Assembly: GCA_963709345.1 (NCBI GenBank)
Contig: CAVPVX010000002.1
Span: 64,001 to 128,000, forward strand
DNA length: 64,000 nucleotides
Direction: 5' to 3'
Origin: an uncultured Actinomycetes bacterium
GTDB lineage: Bacteria; Actinomycetota; Thermoleophilia; UBA2241
Part shown: in pieces, positions 43,982 through 52,622 of the stretch
Layout: every line of letters starts with the position of its first letter
Position numbering within the stretch: position 1 is the first letter of the stretch
Position numbers and translations under genes: made by a program
Notes under the pieces: generated by a model
What the model saw: only the letters and a program-made list of their open reading frames with translations
The model's database searches: none
What the model was told of the DNA's origin: nothing

Positions 43982-44640
43982 GACGGGCCCGCCCCTTCCA
44001 GGACGACCCGCACGACCACGGTCACGACCTCGTCGAGCGTCATGTCCGACGTGTCGACCTCGATCGCGTCCTCGGCGCGGCGCAGAGGCGCGACGGCGCG
44101 CTCCGTGTCCCGCCGGTCGCGCTCCATCACCGCCTCCAGGACGTCGCCGGGGTCGACCTCGTCGCCCTTGGCCCACAGCTCGTCGGCGCGGCGCCCCGCC
44201 CGGATCTCCGGGCGCGCCGTGAGAAAGATCTTGACCGCCGCGTCGGGAAACACGTTGGTGCCGATATCGCGCCCTTCCATCACGGTATCGCCGCCGGCGC
44301 CCAGCGACCGCTGGCGCTCCACCAGCAGGGCGCGCACGGCCGGCAGCGCCGAGACGCGCGACGCGGCCGTGCCCATCTCGAGCGTGCGTATCGCATCGCC
44401 GACGTCGCGGCCGCCGGCGAACAGCCGGCCGGAGGCGTCAAAGCGCAGTTCGACGGACTCGGCGACACCCAGCACGGCGGCCTCGTCGTCCAGAGGCACG
44501 CCCGCCTCGGCCGCCAGCAGGCCCACGGCTCGGTACATCGCGCCCGTGTCGAGGTACAGGTACCCGAGTTGCTCCGCGGCGCGGCGCGCCACCGTGCTCT
44601 TGCCCGAGCCCACGGGACCGTCGATGGCCACGACGGTCAT
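43978..44640 (-). CDS. cmk: Cytidylate kinase
   Basis: AIDGPVGSGKST, DTGAMYR, EGRDIGT, RD..D..R. Confidence 0.96.
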   Translation of the reverse strand: MTVVAIDGPVGSGKSTVARRAAEQLGYLYLDTGAMYRAVGLLAAEAGVPLDDEAAVLGVAESVELRFDASGRLFAGGRDVGDAIRTLEMGTAASRVSALPAVRALLVERQRSLGAGGDTVMEGRDIGTNVFPDAAVKIFLTARPEIRAGRRADELWAKGDEVDPGDVLEAVMERDRRDTERAVAPLRRAEDAIEVDTSDMTLDEVVTVVVRVVLEGAGPS

Positions 44641-45749
44641 GCCACTTCCGCCCGGGTGCTGACCTCGAAGCCCAGGCTGCCGAGCACGTGAGCGGCACGC
44701 GCGCAGACGTCGCTTCCGAGGACGTAGACGGTCAGGGTGCCGCCCAGCTCGGCGCTCATGTGATGCATGGCGAGGTCTTCGACGTTGATGCCGGCGTCGC
44801 CGAGCGCCACCATGATCTCCTGGAACACCCCGGGCCGGTCGCTCACGGGGATGATGAGGCGGTACAGGTCACGCGCCGGCAGGCTGCCGGCCGCGAGCAG
44901 ACGCTCACGCTGCTCCGCGGCGCGGGCGATCGTGCCGCCGAGCTGCTCGGCGTCTCCGGCGGCCAGCGCCTCCAGCACCTCCTGAAGGCCGTCCTGGAAG
45001 GTCGCCAGAGCCGCGAGCATCGCGGCACGGTTCTCGAGGAAGATGTCGGTCCAGACACGGCGGTTGCTGCCGGCGATGCGCGTGAGGTCGCGGAAGCTGG
45101 GGCCGGCGGAGAGCAGCGCGTCGCGCGCGCCCGCGTGCTGGCCTGCCTGGCTCATCAGGATGTTGGCCAGCACGTGCGGCAGGTGACTCACCACCGCCAT
45201 GACCCGGTCGTGCTCTTCCGGGTCGACAGCCACCGGACTGGCGCCGATCTCGCCCAGAAACCCGTACAGAAGCTGGTAGGCGTCGGCGTCGACGTGCGCA
45301 CCGGGCGTGACGAAGTAGGTCGCGCCCTTGTACAGCGAAGCGCGCGCGTTGGCGACCCCTGCGGTCTCCGACCCGCAGAGGGGGTGTCCGCCGATGCAGC
45401 GCCGCTGTTCGGACGGCGTCAGCGCGCGCATGAGCGCCCCCTTCGTGCTGCCGACGTCGGTGACGACCGCGTCCCGCGGCGCAGCCGCGAACGCGGCTTT
45501 GACGTGTCCCACCACGAGCCGGACCGGCGTGCAGACGAAGACCAGGTCGGCGCCGGCCACAGCCTCTTCGAGAGTACCGCAGGCGTGCGTCACAGCGCCG
45601 CGCTCGAGCGCCAGATCGAGCGTCTCCCGCGTCTGGGTGAACCCGCGGACCTCGCCGACGCCGGCACGCTCGCGCGCGGCAAGGCCCAGCGAGCCTCCCA
45701 TGAGGCCGACGCCGACGAGCGCGACGGTATCGACGCGCCTGTCGTTCAC
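44637..45749 (-). CDS. tyrA: Prephenate dehydrogenase with C-terminal ACT domain
   Basis: GVGLMGGS, DVGSTK, GGHP, HD...SHLPH, FRDLTRIA; DRPG ACT motif. Confidence 0.92.
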   Translation of the reverse strand: MNDRRVDTVALVGVGLMGGSLGLAARERAGVGEVRGFTQTRETLDLALERGAVTHACGTLEEAVAGADLVFVCTPVRLVVGHVKAAFAAAPRDAVVTDVGSTKGALMRALTPSEQRRCIGGHPLCGSETAGVANARASLYKGATYFVTPGAHVDADAYQLLYGFLGEIGASPVAVDPEEHDRVMAVVSHLPHVLANILMSQAGQHAGARDALLSAGPSFRDLTRIAGSNRRVWTDIFLENRAAMLAALATFQDGLQEVLEALAAGDAEQLGGTIARAAEQRERLLAAGSLPARDLYRLIIPVSDRPGVFQEIMVALGDAGINVEDLAMHHMSAELGGTLTVYVLGSDVCARAAHVLGSLGFEVSTRAEVA

Positions 45750-45753
45750 GGCG

Positions 45754-46770
45754 TCAGACGACCCTCTTGCCGGTCCAGCGCGCAAGATCGAGGACACGGC
45801 CGGCGTACTCGCCGAATACGGCCGTCGGCAGCGACTGGGGCCCGTCGCACAGGGCGTGCTCCGGATTGGGGTGCGTCTCCACCAAGACCCCGTCGGCACC
45901 GGCGGCGACGCCGGCCAGCGAGAGCGGGAGCACCAGATCGAGGCGCCCGGCCGAGTGACTCGGGTCGACCACGATCGGCAGGTGGCTGGCGAGTTTGACG
46001 ATCGGGACCGCGCTGACGTCGAACGTGTTGCGCGTCGCCGTCTCGAAGGTCCGGATACCGCGCTCGCAGAGGATCACGTCGCGGTTGCCCTCCTTCACCA
46101 CGTACTCCGCCGCCATGAGGAGCTCTTCGATCGTGGTGGAAGGACCGCGTTTGAGCAGCACCGGCTTGCCGGTCTTGCCGAGCTCGGCGAGAAGCAGGAA
46201 GTTCTGCGTGTTGCGGGCGCCGACCTGCAGCACGTCGGCGTAGTTGCACACGACGTCCAGGTCGCGCGGGTCCATCACCTCGGTGACCACCGGCAGACCG
46301 GTGTCGTCGCGCGCGGCGGCCAGCATGGCCAGACCCTCTTCGCCGAGACCCTGGAAGGCATACGGCGAGGTGCGCGGCTTGAAGGCGCCGCCGCGCATCA
46401 TGTGGCCGCCGGCTTCCTTGACGGCGCGCGCTGCCTCGAGGACCTGCTCCGGTGTCTCGACCGAGCAGGGTCCGGCGATGAGCGCGAAGTGGCCGCCGCC
46501 GATCTTCACGCCGTTCACGTCGATGACGGTGTCTCGCTGCTGGAACTCGCGGCTGACGAGCTTGTACGGCCGCAGGATCGCCACCACGCGATCGACCCCC
46601 GGCATGGCCTCGAGAGGCAGCTGCGTCACGGCCTCGCGGTCGCCGATGACACCGACGACGGTGACGCGCTCGCCCGACGAGATGTGGGCGCTCGCGCCCG
46701 CTTCCTCGACGCGCGCGATCACGTTGGCGACCTCCTCTTCGGTCGCCGCCTCGTGCATGATGACCATCAT
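45754..46770 (-). CDS. aroF: Type I-beta DAHP synthase with N-terminal regulatory domain
   Basis: IAGPCSVE, FKPRTSPY, LLKRG, CERGIRTFE, DPSH. Confidence 0.93.
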   Translation of the reverse strand: MMVIMHEAATEEEVANVIARVEEAGASAHISSGERVTVVGVIGDREAVTQLPLEAMPGVDRVVAILRPYKLVSREFQQRDTVIDVNGVKIGGGHFALIAGPCSVETPEQVLEAARAVKEAGGHMMRGGAFKPRTSPYAFQGLGEEGLAMLAAARDDTGLPVVTEVMDPRDLDVVCNYADVLQVGARNTQNFLLLAELGKTGKPVLLKRGPSTTIEELLMAAEYVVKEGNRDVILCERGIRTFETATRNTFDVSAVPIVKLASHLPIVVDPSHSAGRLDLVLPLSLAGVAAGADGVLVETHPNPEHALCDGPQSLPTAVFGEYAGRVLDLARWTGKRVV

Positions 46771-46772
46771 GC

Positions 46773-47903
46773 TCAGCTCGGCCTCCCTTCATCGACTTCC
46801 CGCCCGCCCGCCTCGAGAGAGGCCAGCTTGCGCAGGAAGAACTCGATCTCGTCTTCTGTACCCACGCTGACGCGGGCCCACCCGGGACACCCGAGCGCAT
46901 TCCCGTCGCGCACGATCGCGCCCATCTCGAGGAGCGCCCCGCAGACCTTGTCGTGCGGATGCTGCAGGTCTCGCGTATCGACGAGCATGAAGTTCGCCTG
47001 GCTCGGCACGCTCCCGCGCCCGCGCTCTCGCAGGCGCGCCGCAAGATGCCCGCGGAGCCGCGCGTTCTCGTCGCGCCTCATCGCCACCTGAGCGCTCAGA
47101 GGCAGCGCGGCTAGCGCGGCGACCTGCGCCACACGGCTGACGTTGAAGGGCTGCCGCATCTTGTCGATCGCCCCCGTGATCTCGGGGTCGCACAGACCAT
47201 AGCCGACGCGCAGACCGCACAGACCGTAGATCTTCGAGAAGGTGCGCAGGACGACGACGTTGTCGTGCGCCTTCTGGATGGCCAGCGCGCCCTGGCTGTC
47301 GTCGGCGGTGACGAACTCATTGTACGCCTCGTCGATGATGATCAGCACGTCCTCCGGCACCGACTCGACGAGCTTCTCGACGGCGGCGGCGGGAACGTAC
47401 GTGCCACTGGGGTTGTTCGGATTGCAGACGATCACGAGCCTCGTGCGAGGCGTGAGCGCGGCCGCCATGGCCTCGAGGTCGTGGGCGAAGTCGACGAGCG
47501 GCACCGCCACCGGCACGGCCTCGTGCCGCAGGCAGATGTCGTTGTACACGACGAACGAAGGGTCGGCGAACACCACCTCGTCGCCCTTCACGAGCACGGC
47601 GTCGCCCAGCAGCATGAGCAGTTCGCACGAGCCGGCGCCGACGATCACGTTCTCCGGGGTGCGCGCGTAGCGCTCCGCCAGAGCGGCGCGCAGGTCGGTG
47701 CTGAAGCCGTCCGGGTAGCGATTCAGGTCGTCGAGCGCGTCGACGACGGCCTGCTTGACCTCGGGAAACGGGGGCAGAGGGTACTCGTTCGAGGCGAGCT
47801 TCACGACCTCGCTGAGCCCGAAGCGCCGCATGACGAGCTCGAGCGGCAGGCCGGGCTGATACGCCGTCATCCGCTCAAGAGCCGGGATCAGTCGTACGCC
47901 CAT
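46773..47903 (-). CDS. hisC: Histidinol-phosphate/aromatic aminotransferase
   Basis: KLASNE, RYPD, CNPNNPSG, DEAY, RTFSKIYGL.GLRVGY. Confidence 0.92.
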   Translation of the reverse strand: MGVRLIPALERMTAYQPGLPLELVMRRFGLSEVVKLASNEYPLPPFPEVKQAVVDALDDLNRYPDGFSTDLRAALAERYARTPENVIVGAGSCELLMLLGDAVLVKGDEVVFADPSFVVYNDICLRHEAVPVAVPLVDFAHDLEAMAAALTPRTRLVIVCNPNNPSGTYVPAAAVEKLVESVPEDVLIIIDEAYNEFVTADDSQGALAIQKAHDNVVVLRTFSKIYGLCGLRVGYGLCDPEITGAIDKMRQPFNVSRVAQVAALAALPLSAQVAMRRDENARLRGHLAARLRERGRGSVPSQANFMLVDTRDLQHPHDKVCGALLEMGAIVRDGNALGCPGWARVSVGTEDEIEFFLRKLASLEAGGREVDEGRPS

Positions 47904-47907
47904 GCGC

Positions 47908-48282
47908 TCACTCCGGCAGGTCGAGGCGCAGCTGTCGCGCGCCGTGCAGGTAGACGTGGTGGACGGCCCGGTCCCGAGGCACGTACACGTGCATGAGCAC
48001 CCGGATGCAGCGCTCGATCGCGCCGTCGACCACGATCTCCTGGCAGCAGAGCAGAGGAGTCTCCGAGAGGCCGACGCCCCGCGCCGCCGCGGCGGGGAAG
48101 CCGGCGCGAAGGTCCGGCGTGGCGCTGAAGATCGCACTGACGACCTCGTCGACCGCGAGCCCGTTGCGCTCCAGGATCGCCGTGACGAGCTCACCGGTGC
48201 GATAGCCGATGGCATCGCTCGTGTCACGGACGACGGTCGTCGCGCCGCGGATCGCGCGGAGTCGCTCCGAGGATTCGGTCAT
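47908..48282 (-). CDS. aroH: Chorismate mutase, AroH class
   Basis: RAIRGATT, FPA.AAR, CIRVL, HVYL.GA..LR.DL. Confidence 0.93.
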   Translation of the reverse strand: MTESSERLRAIRGATTVVRDTSDAIGYRTGELVTAILERNGLAVDEVVSAIFSATPDLRAGFPAAAARGVGLSETPLLCCQEIVVDGAIERCIRVLMHVYVPRDRAVHHVYLHGARQLRLDLPE

Positions 48283-48312: not shown

Positions 48313-49137
48313 CTATACACCCGCAAGACCTTCGTCCGCGGCTTCGACGGGCGCGGCTTCGGCAGCCAGCGGCACCGGTGGCCCCTCCACCTCCTGCGAG
48401 ACCTCGCCGTCGACCGACTCACCGGCGCGGCGCAACGACTCGACCTCCTCGGCCGACAGCTGACGGTGTCCACCGGGCTCGAGGCCCTTGTCGGTCAGCG
48501 TGCCGTACCGGCGGCGGCTCAACTCCTCGACCGGCAGGCCCACAGCCGCGAACATGCGCCTGACCTGGCGCTTGCGACCCTCGTGGATGGTGAGCTCTAC
48601 CAGCGCCGTCTTCGCGCTCTGCTTCCTGAGCTTGGCGTCCGCGGGTGCGGTCGGCCCGTCTTCCAGGTCGACTCCCTGGCGGAGCGTGCCCAGTGCCCGG
48701 CGGCTGACCTTGCCACGCACCCGCGCGACGTAGGTCTTGGGGACGCCGTAGCGTGGGTGCATGAGCTGGTTCGCCAGCACGCCGTCGTTCGTCAGAATGA
48801 TGAGGCCGGTCGTATCGACGTCGAGGCGCCCGACTGGGAACAGCGCCCGGCCGCCGGGGACCATGTCGACGATGACCTTCTCGGCGTGGGGGTCGCTGCG
48901 CGTGCTGGCCACGCCGCGCGGCTTGTTGACGAGGACGTAGCGCAGCTCACGAGCCTCGACCGGCTCGCCGCGCACGGCGACGACGTCGTCAGCGCCGACC
49001 TTCTGGCGCGGGAAGGTGACCACTTCGTCGTTCACGGTCACGACTCCCTCGCGGATCAGCTCATCGCACGAGCGCCGGGAGCCGACTCCCGAGCGAGCGA
49101 GGAACACGACCAGATTCATTGGCTGGGCGGGGCTCAT
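48313..49137 (-). CDS. rluB: RsuA-family pseudouridine synthase (RluB-like)
   Basis: S4 domain (GVGSRR), NKP.G, PVGRLD, EGRKRQVRRM; follows scpB. Confidence 0.88.
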   Translation of the reverse strand: MSPAQPMNLVVFLARSGVGSRRSCDELIREGVVTVNDEVVTFPRQKVGADDVVAVRGEPVEARELRYVLVNKPRGVASTRSDPHAEKVIVDMVPGGRALFPVGRLDVDTTGLIILTNDGVLANQLMHPRYGVPKTYVARVRGKVSRRALGTLRQGVDLEDGPTAPADAKLRKQSAKTALVELTIHEGRKRQVRRMFAAVGLPVEELSRRRYGTLTDKGLEPGGHRQLSAEEVESLRRAGESVDGEVSQEVEGPPVPLAAEAAPVEAADEGLAGV

Positions 49138-49709
49138 AGCCCTCTCCTCTCAGCGTTGGCGTGGAGGCGTGAGCGGATCTCCTCTACCTCGTCCGCGCGC
49201 AGGGCGAACTCTTCGAGCGGCGGCAGCTCCGCACGGCCGGACAAACCGAAGAGCTTCAGGAAGCGTTCTCCCGTGCCGTACAGGATCGGCGCTCCCGGGG
49301 TGCCGGCCCGGCCCTGCTGCTCGACCAGGCCGCGCTCTTCCAGCGACCCGAGCGCCCACTCCGACGAGACGCCCCGTACCTCGGCGATCTCTGCCCGCGT
49401 GAGCGGCTCGAGATAGGCGACCACGGCGAGCGTCTCGAGCAGCGCGGGGCTCAGATCCTCCGGTCGCTCAGCGCCGGTGAGGCGCCGTACGTCTTCCGCG
49501 CACTCCTCGGTGACCGCGAACGTCACGCCACCGGCAATGTCCCGCACAAGAAGCCCGTGGCGACCTGCGGCGTACTCCTCGCGCAGCTCCGCGAGGGCCT
49601 CCGCGACGTCGTCCTCTGAACGCTCGCAGGCCGCGGCCAGACGAGCGACCGAAAGAGGACGCGATGATATGAAGAGGAGCGCCTCGAGGCGCGTGGTGAG
49701 CGATCGCAT
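49134..49709 (-). CDS. scpB: SMC-Scp complex subunit ScpB
   Basis: LEALLF, LS.ALLETLAVVAY..P.TR.EI..VRGV, G.P.LYGT...FL..FGL. Confidence 0.93.
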   Translation of the reverse strand: MRSLTTRLEALLFISSRPLSVARLAAACERSEDDVAEALAELREEYAAGRHGLLVRDIAGGVTFAVTEECAEDVRRLTGAERPEDLSPALLETLAVVAYLEPLTRAEIAEVRGVSSEWALGSLEERGLVEQQGRAGTPGAPILYGTGERFLKLFGLSGRAELPPLEEFALRADEVEEIRSRLHANAERRGL

Positions 49710-49767
49710 GCTGGCCTGTGTCGAGTGCCGGGACGCGGTCGATGCTACCGCACACCGCCGTCCGGCG

Positions 49768-50577
49768 TCACCCGGTGGCGACGGCGGCCCTGCTGACGAA
49801 GATATCGCCGAAGTGCCGCGTCTGCCGGAGGCGAGCCTCGCCGGCGGAATGCAGTTCCAGCAGAGCGAAGAAGGTGACGGCTCGCTCGAGCCTGTCCGCA
49901 GGCGCCACCTCGGCGAACGTGAACTCGCCCTCGTCGCAGAGGATCAGCCGCAGCCGGCGAAGCTCCTTCACGAGCGAGACGGCGAGATCGGCCAGGTGGC
50001 TCGTATCCGGCACGGGCGGCTCGCGCAGGAGCGGCGCCAGCGCGTCGCCCAGCGCCTGCGCCGGCAGCGCGCCTTCTGCGGCCGGCCGGCGCAGGAGCTC
50101 AGCCGGCACCGGCACACCCCGATACAGCCTGCCGCTGTGCTCGTCCCAGCGAGCGCGCAGGCCTACGGCCGCGGCGCGGAACTGGCTATAGCGCACGAGA
50201 CGCTCGAGGAGCTGCCGCGCGGCCTCGTCCGGGTCGAGATCATCGAACTGCTCCTCGACGTCCTCTTCCAGAAGGAGCCGCGACTTCATCTCGAGCAGGG
50301 CGGCGACGAGCACGACGAACTGCGAGGTGGCGTCGAGATCGAACTCGCCGCTGTCGGCAAGCCGCAGCACGTACTCGGCGATGATGCGCGAGACGCGCAC
50401 CTCCCAGATGTCGATCTCGTCACGCAGGATAAGCGTGACCAGCAGATCGAACGGACCGTCGAAGACGTCGAGGTCGAGGTCGAATGAGCGGCGATCCTGC
50501 GGCGCCCCGCTCGCCGGTTCGCCTGCGGCGGCCAGTCCGACAGGCGGTGTGGCGACGGCGCTCGCTTCAGCGCGCAT
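49768..50577 (-). CDS. scpA: SMC-Scp complex kleisin subunit ScpA
   Basis: FDGPFDLL..LI, KSR.LL, F.ALLEL...Q...FGDI; GGAGG RBS. Confidence 0.92.
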   Translation of the reverse strand: MRAEASAVATPPVGLAAAGEPASGAPQDRRSFDLDLDVFDGPFDLLVTLILRDEIDIWEVRVSRIIAEYVLRLADSGEFDLDATSQFVVLVAALLEMKSRLLLEEDVEEQFDDLDPDEAARQLLERLVRYSQFRAAAVGLRARWDEHSGRLYRGVPVPAELLRRPAAEGALPAQALGDALAPLLREPPVPDTSHLADLAVSLVKELRRLRLILCDEGEFTFAEVAPADRLERAVTFFALLELHSAGEARLRQTRHFGDIFVSRAAVATG

Positions 50578-50686
50578 CGCCGTCACCTCCTCGCTCGCTC
50601 ATGCCGGCGTCAGCCCGTCTCGCCACGCGAGCACGACGTCCGCGAGTCGCCGCCCGCCACTGCGTCCGCGTCGTGCACAGCGCGTA

Positions 50687-51880
50687 TCATTTCTCGGGCT
50701 GATTCACAAAGGACGGGATGTCGAAGGCTCCGCTCTCGAAGTCCGGCGCGGGACCGAAGGGTGTGCCCCGGTCTTCCGCGGGCTCCCGCGGCGCGGCCCG
50801 CCCTGCGGGGGGATCAGCGGACGGCGGCGCCGTGCGCGCCGCCTCCTCTCCGAAACCGGTGGCCACGACGGTGATCGAGATCTTGCCCTCGAGACGCTCG
50901 TCCACGACGGCGCCGAAGATGATGTTGGCGTCGTCGTCGGCGGCCTCGCTGATGACTCCTGCCGCCTCGTTCACCTCGTAAAGCGTCAGATCCTCGCCGC
51001 CGGTGATGTTGAGCAGCAGCCCCCGCGCGCCGTCGATGCTCGTCTCGAGCAGCGGCGAGTTGATCGCCATGTCGGCGGCGGCCTGGGCGCGGTTCTCGCC
51101 GCCGGCGACGCCGATGCCGAGAAGCGCCGTCCCGGCGTCGTGGACGATGGTCCGAACGTCCGCGAAGTCGAGGTTGATGAGGCCGGGCACGGTGATGAGA
51201 TCCGTGATCCCCTGCACGCCCTGGCGCAGGATGTCGTCGGCGTGCTGGAACGCCTCCACGACGCTCGTGTTGCGCTCGACCACCTCGAGCAGCCGGTCGT
51301 TGGGGATCGCGATCACTGTGTCCGCGGCCGCGCGAAGCGCCAAGATGCCCTCGGCGGCCTGTCGCTGGCGGCGGTTGCCCTCGAAGCCGAAGGGCCGGGT
51401 GACGATGGCAATGGTGACCGCACCGAGCTCGCCCGCGACCTGCGCCACGACCGGCGACCCTCCGGTGCCGGTCCCCCCACCTTCGCCGGCGGTGACGAAG
51501 ACCAGGTCGGCGCCGCGCAGCGCCGTCTTCAGCTGGTCGCGGCTGATCTCCATGGCCTCGCGCCCGACCTCCGGGTCGGCGCCCCCGCCGAGGCCGTGAG
51601 TGAGCTCCTGGCCGATGTGGATCTTGACATCGGCGTCACACACGTCGAGCTGCTGAACGTCGGTGTTGACGGCGATGAACTCGACGCCCTTCACGCCCGA
51701 GTCGACCATGCGGTTGATGGCGTTCGTGCCGGCCCCGCCGATGCCCACGACCTTGATGCTGGTGACGTACGGGCGACCCTTGACCGGCGCGTCGGTCCCC
51801 GCGTCGGGAACAGTACCGCCGCTGTCCGTGCGCCGGAAGAGCTCGCTCAGTCCATCCTTCATGCTAGGACGATCTGCCAT
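50687..51880 (-). CDS. ftsZ: Cell division GTPase FtsZ with an N-terminal extension
   Basis: [22 protein letters not shown] signature, [12 protein letters not shown]7 loop, ITVVATG, C-terminal FDIPSF peptide. Confidence 0.96.
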
Positions 51881-52622
51881 TGAGCACCTCCCGCGCGAGG
51901 GCACGGTACGCTTCTGCTCCCCTGCCGGTTGGATCGTACTTGAGGACCGAGGCCCCCGTCACGGGCGCCTCGGCGAACTTGATGGTCTTGCGCACCACCG
52001 TGTCGAAGACGAGGTCGCCGAAGTTCTCGCGCAGGACCTCGATCGACTCCCTGCCGTGCAGCGTACACGCGTCGAAGAGCGTCGGTAAGATGCCCTTGAT
52101 GCGCACCTCGGGATTGAGATTCTCGCGGATCATCTCGAGCGTCCGCTCCAGCTGCAACAGCCCGCGCAGCGAGAGGTACTCGCACTGGACGGGCACGATG
52201 ACTCCTTCGGATGCAGTGAGCGCGTTGATGGTGAGCAGGCCGAGGCTCGGGGGCGTGTCGATCAGGATGTAGTCGTAGCGCTCACGTACCGCGTCGAGGG
52301 CGCGCTGCAGAGCCCGCTCGCGCCCGATCATCGTCGCCAGCGCCATCTCGGCGCCGGCCAGGTCGATCGTGGAGGCGGCGACGTCGAGTTCGCGCTCGTA
52401 GATGACGTCCTCGATGGGCGTACGATGCACGAGCACGTCGTACATGCTCTTCTCGAGGTCCTCGGTGTCGATGCCCTGACTCATCGTCAGGTTGCCCTGC
52501 GGGTCCATGTCGACCGCGAGCACGCGCAGATCGTGCTCCCGGAGGGCCGCGCCGAGGTTCACCGTCGAGGTGGTCTTCGCCACCCCGCCCTTCTGATTGG
52601 CGAACGCGATGACATGCGCCAT
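51864..52622 (-). CDS. parA: ParA/Soj family ATPase
   Basis: [39 protein letters not shown]. Confidence 0.92.

Follow-up and report, generated by a model that had tools for sequence, protein, structure and literature searches.

Actinobacteria lack Min and Noc, to our knowledge, and how they choose their division site is therefore an old open question. In Caulobacter, FtsZ is a direct target of MipZ, an ATPase of the ParA family that ties the choice of division site to the chromosome; MipZ is a ParB-activated inhibitor of the only FtsZ of that organism, which has no partner peptide. PMC7993993 and PMC9178275 describe activators of ParA/MinD ATPases that differ in fold (ParB, ParG, MinE, PomX and probably TlpT and McdB), and indicate that peptides of ~20 residues can suffice for activation. 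These sources also present PomX of Myxococcus xanthus as a filament-forming scaffold whose peptide lets PomZ bring the cluster to mid-nucleoid, the Z-ring site; ParF-ParG of plasmid TP228, a type Ib ParA/ribbon-helix-helix (RHH) pair, as a small ParA with a small RHH dimer whose flexible basic N-tail stimulates the ATPase; and PpfA-TlpT of Rhodobacter sphaeroides and McdA-McdB as systems in which an orphan ParA positions a protein cargo on the nucleoid and the activating N-terminal extension is on the cargo component. Orphan ParA-like ATPases encoded beside scpA-scpB and having division-site phenotypes are PldP of Corynebacterium glutamicum and Rv1708 and MSMEG_3743 of mycobacteria; PldP and Rv1708 affect septum placement, and bioRxiv 10.1101/2025.07.02.662783 describes the partner of PldP as yet to be identified. 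Here we describe a locus on a 64,000-nucleotide (nt) stretch of an uncultured bacterium of the actinobacterial class Thermoleophilia (assembly GCA_963709345.1, contig CAVPVX010000002.1, positions 64,001 to 128,000; hereafter the window, meaning the whole stretch), in which the gene of an orphan ParA is followed directly by that of a second FtsZ, FtsZ2, headed by a candidate ParA-partner peptide.

The parA-ftsZ2 two-gene pair is characteristic of the class Thermoleophilia, and FtsZ2 is a vertically inherited second FtsZ that forms one old lineage with intact GTP-binding and T7 motifs. With moderate confidence, and on comparative sequence evidence, we take the two genes to encode a positioning pair in which a putative ParA-activating peptide has moved from a DNA-binding module to an FtsZ paralogue. 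A search of the window genome (a 3.11-Mb, 98%-complete assembly) with the window FtsZ returned two ftsZ genes, one for FtsZ1 at the canonical dcw position (ftsW-murG-murC-ftsQ-ftsZ) and one for FtsZ2 in the window, outside the mur-fts cluster. The window FtsZ is thus not the only one of the cell, a correction to a first reading made from the window sequence only. FtsZ1, of 362 aa, is 65% identical to FtsZ2, aligns only from FtsZ2 residue 37 and has no extension, with 11 residues ahead of its core as against ~40 in FtsZ2. Its C-terminus is LDIPSFL and the FtsZ2 tail is FDIPSFV; in studied FtsZs, the conserved C-terminal tail binds membrane anchors. Other elements of the sequence-only reading were borne out. 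FtsZ2 is intact, the GEGGGTGTG signature, the NLDFAD T7 loop and the C-terminal FDIPSFV all being present in the translation, and its matches to PF00091 and PF12327 both pass the cut-offs (E-values in Table 1); its gene has yajC, parA, scpA and scpB as flanks (open reading frames (ORFs) and Pfam) and no fts or mur neighbours; the 17-nt overlap with the 3' end of parA agrees with the coordinates (ATG at 51880, parA stop ending at 51864); and the extension, put at ~38 aa, corresponds to the ~40 residues preceding the Pfam Tubulin domain, which begins at residue 41.

The distribution of the pair was followed in a set of 41 genomes made up of the window genome, 24 further members of its genus and 16 genomes belonging to six other families. 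At least two FtsZ matches were found in 39 of the 41, the single-match genomes being G009 (95% complete) and G016 (87% complete). ParA is encoded directly upstream of FtsZ2 at 18 of 19 genus loci, L021 being cut by a contig end (tblastn), and in each of the 16 genomes of other families one FtsZ gene lies within 4 kb of murC and the other directly behind a ParA gene whose product is 64-72% identical to the window ParA. The parA stop and the ftsZ2 start often overlap across the class loci. The phylum was then sampled evenly with 301 genomes of at least 90% completeness, 24 in the class and 277 outside it. At least two FtsZ matches were present in 24/24 class genomes; outside the class, 264 genomes had one match, 2 none and 11 two. 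Of these 11, nine were looked at: eight carry tandem ftsZ pairs, and in the ninth a single gene is divided between two contigs, with all FtsZ copies aligning only from FtsZ2 residue 31 or later. The remaining two (G232 and G242) belong to the same family as the tandem cases. Genomes flagged as unpublished (G041, G057, G085, G104, G123, G152, G176, G201, G244, G255 and G278) contribute solely single-match rows to these tallies.

The tandem ftsZ-ftsZ pairs, 100-600 nt apart (G083, G124, G137, G162, G210, G221, G257 and G263), are an independent kind of FtsZ duplication in other Actinomycetota families. They resemble the situation in Thermoleophilia in giving two FtsZ genes per genome, but the copies adjoin each other and neither showed a match to the N-terminal peptide.

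A maximum likelihood tree was computed from 19 FtsZ2, 18 FtsZ1 and 20 other actinobacterial FtsZ sequences, using 323 columns each filled in at least 70% of rows and excluding the peptide. The 19 ParA-linked FtsZ2 form a single clade (SH-aLRT 97), in which the family subclades mirror those of FtsZ1 on longer stems. GGGTG[ST]G is found in 18 of the 19 FtsZ2 sequences and N[LVI]DFAD in 16, the other three having NLDLAD with both Asp residues retained. A D/E-[ILV]-P-x-F tail is present in the ParA-linked FtsZs of most families and is missing from those of one (L040, L048, L052 and L054). For these four FtsZ2 proteins, the lack of D/E-I/L-P-x-F suggests that the usual membrane anchors are not usable.

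The N-terminal peptide, which is basic/hydrophobic in character, is conserved in 17/17 aligned class sequences (consensus xxxKRASMREGPLAxLFRxT), with L11, L14 and F15 invariant and S6 nearly so, and its form across the class is (K/R)RxS-M-(K/R)-(E/D)-G-x-L-x-x-L-F-R-x-T. K or R follows M/L in all aligned rows, and basic residues occupy -3/-4 and +1 relative to this M/L (alignment by eye). The peptide lies near the frame start in 16/16 ParA-linked FtsZs outside the genus as well as at the genus loci, where it is one residue shorter than the majority form, so the extension first seen in the window is conserved. It is followed by a linker of ~20 residues in the window genus and up to ~140 elsewhere (L049, L060, L061 and L064), the sequence of which is not conserved; judged from the alignments, peptide and linker look like a short linear motif carried by a disordered tether. 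Pairwise comparison of the peptide codons of nine sequences from five families gave 252 third-position, 85 first-position and 35 second-position differences, and 222 synonymous against 71 non-synonymous differing codon pairs. This dominance of synonymous and third-position differences indicates that the peptide is translated and under purifying selection.

These data bear on the proposal that FtsZ2 is a redundant or decaying duplicate, with an extension that is an annotation artefact and a true start further downstream, as the ATG or GTG codons that occur in frame after the first Met might suggest. We consider this very improbable, given that the paralogue is kept with its GTPase motifs intact in all class genomes sampled and that the peptide is under protein-level purifying selection over five families. 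Several genus loci have a stop codon just before the first Met. In the window, GGGAGG sits 6 nt upstream of ATG 51880, inside parA, which supports this ATG as the start and translational coupling to parA; an in-frame GTG lies upstream of it, at 51904. The M of the motif was also considered as the real start codon and ruled out, since it is replaced by a CTG-encoded Leu in L060, since K/R-x-S before it is conserved even without the parA overlap (L048 and L052), and since the Shine-Dalgarno sequence of the window precedes the upstream ATG. The start assumed in the sequence-only reading, upstream of the peptide, is thus retained.

The pattern [KR].S[LM].{4,6}[DE]LFR.T, which was drawn up after the data were seen, has 1 match in the 5.56 million six-frame residues of the genome, at the FtsZ2 N-terminus, and 0 matches in 20 residue shuffles. 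When proteins were searched with the FtsZ2 N-terminus as 45-aa segments, 6359 of 8000 scored candidates had E <= 1, and the best 120 of these matches were either FtsZ entries or short proteins lacking any Pfam domain. One match is annotated as the FtsZ of Gaiella occulta, of the class Thermoleophilia, and agrees in sequence with L049 (genome G026, of the same class as the window). The 15 match sequences inspected all open with the MARKRASMREGPLA(E/D)LFR type, and 13 of the 15 are short or have lost the greater part of the FtsZ core: most of these 13 have Arg-rich, out-of-frame-looking tails, two hold part of a frameshifted core, and one continues into an unrelated hydrophobic segment. We rejected these 13 as separate small proteins and read them as frameshifted or truncated calls of ftsZ2. 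Many metagenome gene calls of Gaiellales FtsZ2 stop after the linker with Arg-rich tails, even on long contigs (P0014, P0025, P0035, P0037, P0049, P0070, P0108 and P0083), the likely cause being frameshift errors in the GC-rich, low-complexity linker, so that FtsZ2 annotation is often broken. Long linkers of the Gaiellales type also contain a second conserved motif, ~ALEETVEHV(Y/H)DF(E/A) (L049, L060, L061, P0005, P0103 and fragments), which bears a faint resemblance to the HEEKVTFY strand in the small protein described below.

The window ParA is an orphan, and FtsZ2 occupies the place of a parB. It is the second ParA of its genome, the other being Soj, to which it is 43% identical, and its orphan status follows from the rsmG-soj-parB locus on contig C1, which holds the only ParB_N match of the genome; the absence of a parB beside the window parA, as first read, therefore stands. 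The protein has a deviant Walker A motif, KGGxxK[ST], with the signature lysine present and N9-T18 invariant in 17 orthologues. Its closest solved structures are 8ray, 4pfs/5ihp and Soj (1wcv/2bek/6iub), and it shares KGGVAKTT with 4pfs. Orthologues (64-96% identity) precede ftsZ2 at every class locus uncut by a contig end, and relatives in other classes of the phylum, at 49-55% identity, are closer to it than the Soj of its own genome (43%). In a ParA tree, the 17 FtsZ2-linked ParAs form a clade (99) and, together with small-protein-linked ParAs, scpA-linked ParAs and a third group, belong to a clade (99) apart from ParB-linked Soj.

The third orphan-ParA group (L079 and L087, and also L095 from a genome flagged as unpublished) precedes another kind of small protein, whose paired Cys motifs resemble by eye a zinc ribbon; the L087 protein also has, further upstream, a stretch of the DPLGKAALF type that could be a further ParA-partner peptide. 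In the canonical ParB of the window genome (L066 1492-2253 and 510-1661, minus strand), the open frame extends far at the N-terminal end, with an LGKGLGALI peptide ~80 residues into it, and the true start is probably internal.

Neighbouring genes were read at the best 25 ParA loci outside the class. At 14 of them, ParA is directly followed by an ORF of 113-147 aa beginning (M/V)x(R/K)RASLPGA(D/E)ELFRxT; the ParA of L081 is followed by an ORF with the C-terminal domain of this small protein, and the rest are followed by parB (five), a different small protein with Cys pairs (three), scpA-scpB (one, L091) or an unrelated gene (one). A small gene of this kind, opening with 'ELFR.T' behind an orphan ParA, had been mentioned in the sequence-only reading; it is real and widespread in other Actinomycetota, with at least 580 confirmed species records holding it, among them Streptomyces, Nocardiopsis, Nocardioides, Geodermatophilus, Blastococcus, Modestobacter, Microlunatus, Frankiaceae, Pseudonocardiales and Nanopelagicales. 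The protein consists of the N-terminal peptide, a variable linker and a conserved C-terminal domain, and is longer in Streptomyces-like genomes. In an alignment of 12 rows, R4 to F14, R15 and T17 are invariant; three of the rows come from genomes flagged as unpublished (G041, G057 and G085), and the same motif is present in the nine public rows and in public records (public loci L072, L074-L076, L078, L080, L082, L083, L085, L088 and L090; further loci L117-L196). In every genome cross-checked, the small gene starts no more than ~250 nt from the ParA stop. It was found in 49 of 201 phylum genomes, with 48 strong matches, and is near-universal in some families (14/14, 12/13, 10/11 and 4/4). In Thermoleophilia it was found in 0/15 genomes of the phylum sample and 0/61 of a class search for which the phylum search served as positive control.

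The small protein has no Pfam match and no sequence match in the PDB at E <= 10, and Foldseek returned nothing at E <= 0.001 with its model. In the AF2 model, the mean pLDDT per 10-residue block is at least ~89 from residue 61 and is 64 for the block containing residues 58-60; the C-terminal domain is modelled as an extended segment followed by three helices, and a 3-residue helix appears at the DEL position of the peptide. When the model was compared with 48,161 solved chains by VIA-align, the top rows were mostly RHH domains, including the TraM N-domain (Z 5.2, rmsd 1.4 Å over 48 residues) and the PutA RHH (Z 4.5, rmsd 1.3 Å over 44 residues), with several RHH antitoxins, the ParB of plasmid pCXC100 (Z 4.0) and ParG (Z 3.5) among further rows, all of these Z scores being modest and in the range that VIA-align calls common. 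The model thus suggests that the C-terminal domain is likely an RHH fold. From its position and opening motif, the small RRASLPGADELFR protein is a candidate partner class of PldP-type actinobacterial orphan ParAs.

The N-termini of FtsZ2 and of the small protein were compared with each other by hhalign, giving a pairwise E of 1.4e-4 over 22 columns with 45% identity and a probability of 53% (kRaSMReGpLa-LFR-Te vs rRASLP-G-AdELFR-Ts). Because the two peptides have the same operon position and a mutually exclusive distribution in addition to this profile evidence, we consider it quite likely that they share a common origin. The suggestion that a ParA-partner peptide is fused to FtsZ accordingly has strong comparative support, in the class-wide conservation and the hhalign match with the small-protein N-terminus, and is amended in two respects: the carrier is a second FtsZ paralogue, and the link to scpAB is confined to the genus.

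Indeed, scpA follows ftsZ2 at 18 of 19 genus loci, L022 being cut by a contig end (tblastn), and no ScpA or ScpB was found beside ftsZ2 at the 16 loci outside the genus (tblastn 1e-8, within 4 kb). At nine loci of five other families, Pfam identifies the genes after ftsZ2 as gamma-glutamyltranspeptidase, YdjC, class IV aminotransferase and sigma-70 factor genes. In other classes, scpA lies no more than 1.5 kb past the ParA/small-protein pair in L076, L080, L081 and L090, and directly after ParA in L091. Mycobacterial Rv1708 is reported in PMC10482377 to interact with ScpA and ParB. From this report and the scpA genes near related ParAs in other classes, we conclude that the place beside scpAB is probably ancestral and was kept in the window genus, and that scpAB is not part of the conserved functional unit parA-ftsZ2. 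Of the parA-ftsZ-scpAB arrangement first noticed in the window, parA-ftsZ2 is therefore conserved across Thermoleophilia and scpAB adjoins it only in the genus of the window; co-expression with condensin loaders, also proposed, fails for the class.

How might such a pair act? In the mechanism that we propose, the FtsZ2 peptide would be a ParA-binding, ATPase-activating element, which in the Thermoleophilia ancestor came to head an FtsZ paralogue in place of a DNA-binding domain. On the nucleoid, non-specifically bound ParA-ATP dimers would trap FtsZ2 polymers by way of the numerous peptides tethered to these polymers, and stimulated ATP hydrolysis would release ParA. This would set up a ParA gradient that carries the FtsZ2 assembly to a particular nucleoid position or keeps it there, most probably at mid-nucleoid, where the PomXYZ cluster is also placed. 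At that position FtsZ2 would initiate the FtsZ1 ring or become part of it, either by co-polymerisation or because the C-terminal peptides of the two proteins have partners in common. A complex prediction of two ParA, two ATP, two Mg and FtsZ2(1-45), made with the 17-row alignments and without controls, scored 0.00 and 0.17 against a mark of 0.32. 

The peptide might instead bind something other than ParA, such as the membrane, a SepF-like anchor, a kinase or a protease, the adjacency to parA reflecting co-regulation only: its L-x-x-L-F core might fold as a short amphipathic helix, a 3-residue helix is modelled by AF2 at the equivalent DEL of the small protein, and the nearly invariant Ser in R-R-x-S could be a phosphosite. 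We hold this to be improbable, since related peptides head two unrelated domains, FtsZ and the RHH-like one, for which the common factor seen is a neighbouring ParA, and since the N-terminal position, the flexible linker and the conserved basic residues fit the ParA activators known from PMC7993993. As a separate observation, the R-R-x-S-[LM] context of this Ser (window 51824-51880) suggests a possible phospho-switch for the putative ParA contact. We take this context to resemble a basophilic kinase site.

Given a contact between ParA and the peptide, the ATPase could still be an inhibitor of the nucleoid-occlusion or MipZ-like type, its DNA-bound dimers sequestering or depolymerising FtsZ2 so that ring formation would be confined to regions free of DNA. 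This alternative can draw on the comparative evidence already given for contact between ParA and the peptide, FtsZ-inhibiting ParA/MinD ATPases are known (MipZ and MinCD), and the window ParA matches the MipZ model PF09140 at 1.1e-9 (profile positions 1-137 of 262), which is weak beside its AAA_31 match. Yet the expected target of an inhibitor is the main FtsZ1, which is without the peptide. MipZ, moreover, is a ParB-activated protein and can do without a peptide on FtsZ. Tethered N-terminal peptides have so far marked cargo or activators, according to PMC7993993. We therefore regard inhibition as unlikely, and we favour, if only tentatively, a positive marker role for FtsZ2, because the peptide sits on the extra paralogue and not on FtsZ1. 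A fuller version of the positioning mechanism, which is possible but which we would not press, is that FtsZ2 of Thermoleophilia is self-positioning, its filaments being both the cargo and the multivalent activator of a nucleoid-bound ParA ratchet, reaching mid-nucleoid and templating the FtsZ1 ring there with no need for Min, Noc, MipZ, PomXY or SsgB, and that the small RRASLPGADELFR protein is the long-sought partner class of orphan ParAs. The evolutionary part of that version, in which an FtsZ paralogue took the place of the DNA-binding cargo module in a chromosomal ParA/RHH partition pair of the ancestor, we hold with similar reserve.

Several observations weigh against the positioning mechanism and the peptide relationship on which it draws. 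The hhalign probability is just 53%, the homology of the peptides rests on a short stretch, and the RAS[LM]-to-ELFR spacing differs by 1-2 residues between the two. An HMM of the small-protein N-terminus (first 22 columns) did not list FtsZ2 in the six-frame genome, and the FtsZ2-peptide profile ranked the small protein best in 2/5 other genomes, weakly (E 0.07 and 0.5). The peptide variant of the window genus is equal in acidic and basic residues. In the ParA tree, the FtsZ2-linked ParAs are sister, with weak support (85), to the third group with its zinc-ribbon-like neighbour and not to the small-protein-linked group. The FtsZ2 of one family is without the C-terminal peptide, so that the output of FtsZ2 may differ between lineages. 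Lastly, mid-nucleoid placement and co-assembly with FtsZ1 would be pure inference by analogy.

Set beside the described systems, the pair is most like PomX/PomZ and PpfA-TlpT in logic, because in these, too, the activating peptide is on the cargo or scaffold. As in PomXYZ, where the DNA-bound ParA/MinD ATPase PomZ positions the polymer-forming scaffold PomX on the nucleoid, a polymer would be the object positioned; here, however, the peptide-bearing polymer would be an FtsZ paralogue, a separate scaffold or adaptor would be superfluous (no search for PomX or PomY was made in this genome), and the ATPase is a Soj-like actinobacterial orphan ParA. The cargo of PpfA-TlpT and McdA-McdB is a chemoreceptor array or a carboxysome and not a division protein. 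With MipZ-ParB the proposed system would share a ParA-family ATPase acting directly on FtsZ, but here a second FtsZ holds the operon position of ParB. The actinobacterial small protein has the same layout as ParG and its model matches RHH domains including those of pCXC100 ParB and ParG; unlike ParF-ParG, the actinobacterial system is chromosomal and its small protein is without a Pfam model, and in Thermoleophilia FtsZ would stand in place of the probable RHH module. The window ParA resembles the PldP/Rv1708 type in sharing a clade with the parA-scpA-scpB type sequence L091, whereas the PldP/Rv1708 species are without FtsZ2, and the small protein is also not at L091, the one such locus seen. 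The contrast drawn in the sequence-only reading with MinCD, MipZ, PomXYZ and SsgAB is fair, with PomX/PomZ and TlpT/PpfA as the nearest in logic.

On the minus strand of the window, the order is yajC, parA, ftsZ2, scpA, scpB and then the pseudouridine synthase gene rluB (ORF list and Pfam); ftsZ2 lies directly upstream of scpA-scpB, as first described, the two being identified by their matches to SMC_ScpA and SMC_ScpB (Table 1). Beyond rluB, the ORFs at window positions 44637-48282 resemble by eye an aromatic amino-acid cluster, with chorismate mutase, histidinol-phosphate/aromatic aminotransferase, DAHP synthase and prephenate dehydrogenase as members.

Table 1. Features of the parA-ftsZ2 locus and its neighbours, in window coordinates.
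Feature	Position	Strand	Remarks
yajC	53195-52764	minus	upstream of parA
Orphan ParA-type ATPase, 252 aa	52622-51864	minus	Pfam AAA_31 2e-61, CbiA, ParA
Shine-Dalgarno GGGAGG	51892-51887	minus	6 nt before ftsZ2 ATG, within parA 3' end
ftsZ2, 397 aa from ATG	51880-50687	minus	Pfam Tubulin (PF00091) 6e-45 (41-201), FtsZ_C (PF12327) 4.5e-34 (250-343)
N-terminal peptide, residues 1-19	51824..51880	minus	proposed ParA-partner (ATPase-activating-protein type) motif
Gly/Pro/Asp-rich linker, residues 20-40	51761..51823	minus	joins peptide to GTPase core
FtsZ GTPase and C-terminal domains, residues 41-343	50852..51760	minus	GIGGAG, GGGTGTG, NLDFAD
C-terminal peptide FDIPSFV, residues 386-392	50705..50725	minus	read from translation
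scpA, kleisin of SMC complex	50586-49768	minus	Pfam SMC_ScpA 4.6e-19; 100 nt downstream of ftsZ2
scpB	49709-49134	minus	Pfam SMC_ScpB 8.4e-48
Pseudouridine synthase (rluB)	49137-48313	minus	downstream of scpB

A literature search that fell short of most subscription journals returned nothing about ParA-linked FtsZ paralogues, FtsZ of Thermoleophilia or SCO1771/SCO1772, and the system appears to vary the known ParA/activator positioning systems in having an FtsZ paralogue as the putative peptide-bearing cargo. A whole bacterial class carries a candidate ParA-partner peptide on an FtsZ paralogue; if the assignment is true, this would be the first ParA activator fused to the division cytoskeleton itself, and would let the division ring be positioned directly with respect to the DNA, without an adaptor. 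The widespread, unnamed small protein with a closely similar peptide right behind a related ParA offers a second lead on the partner of orphan ParAs, and the locus would be a clean natural example of the modularity of ParA-activating peptides. Both leads may be tested in culturable species, namely Gaiella occulta of the class Thermoleophilia, which has the FtsZ2 form, and Streptomyces, which has the small-protein form.

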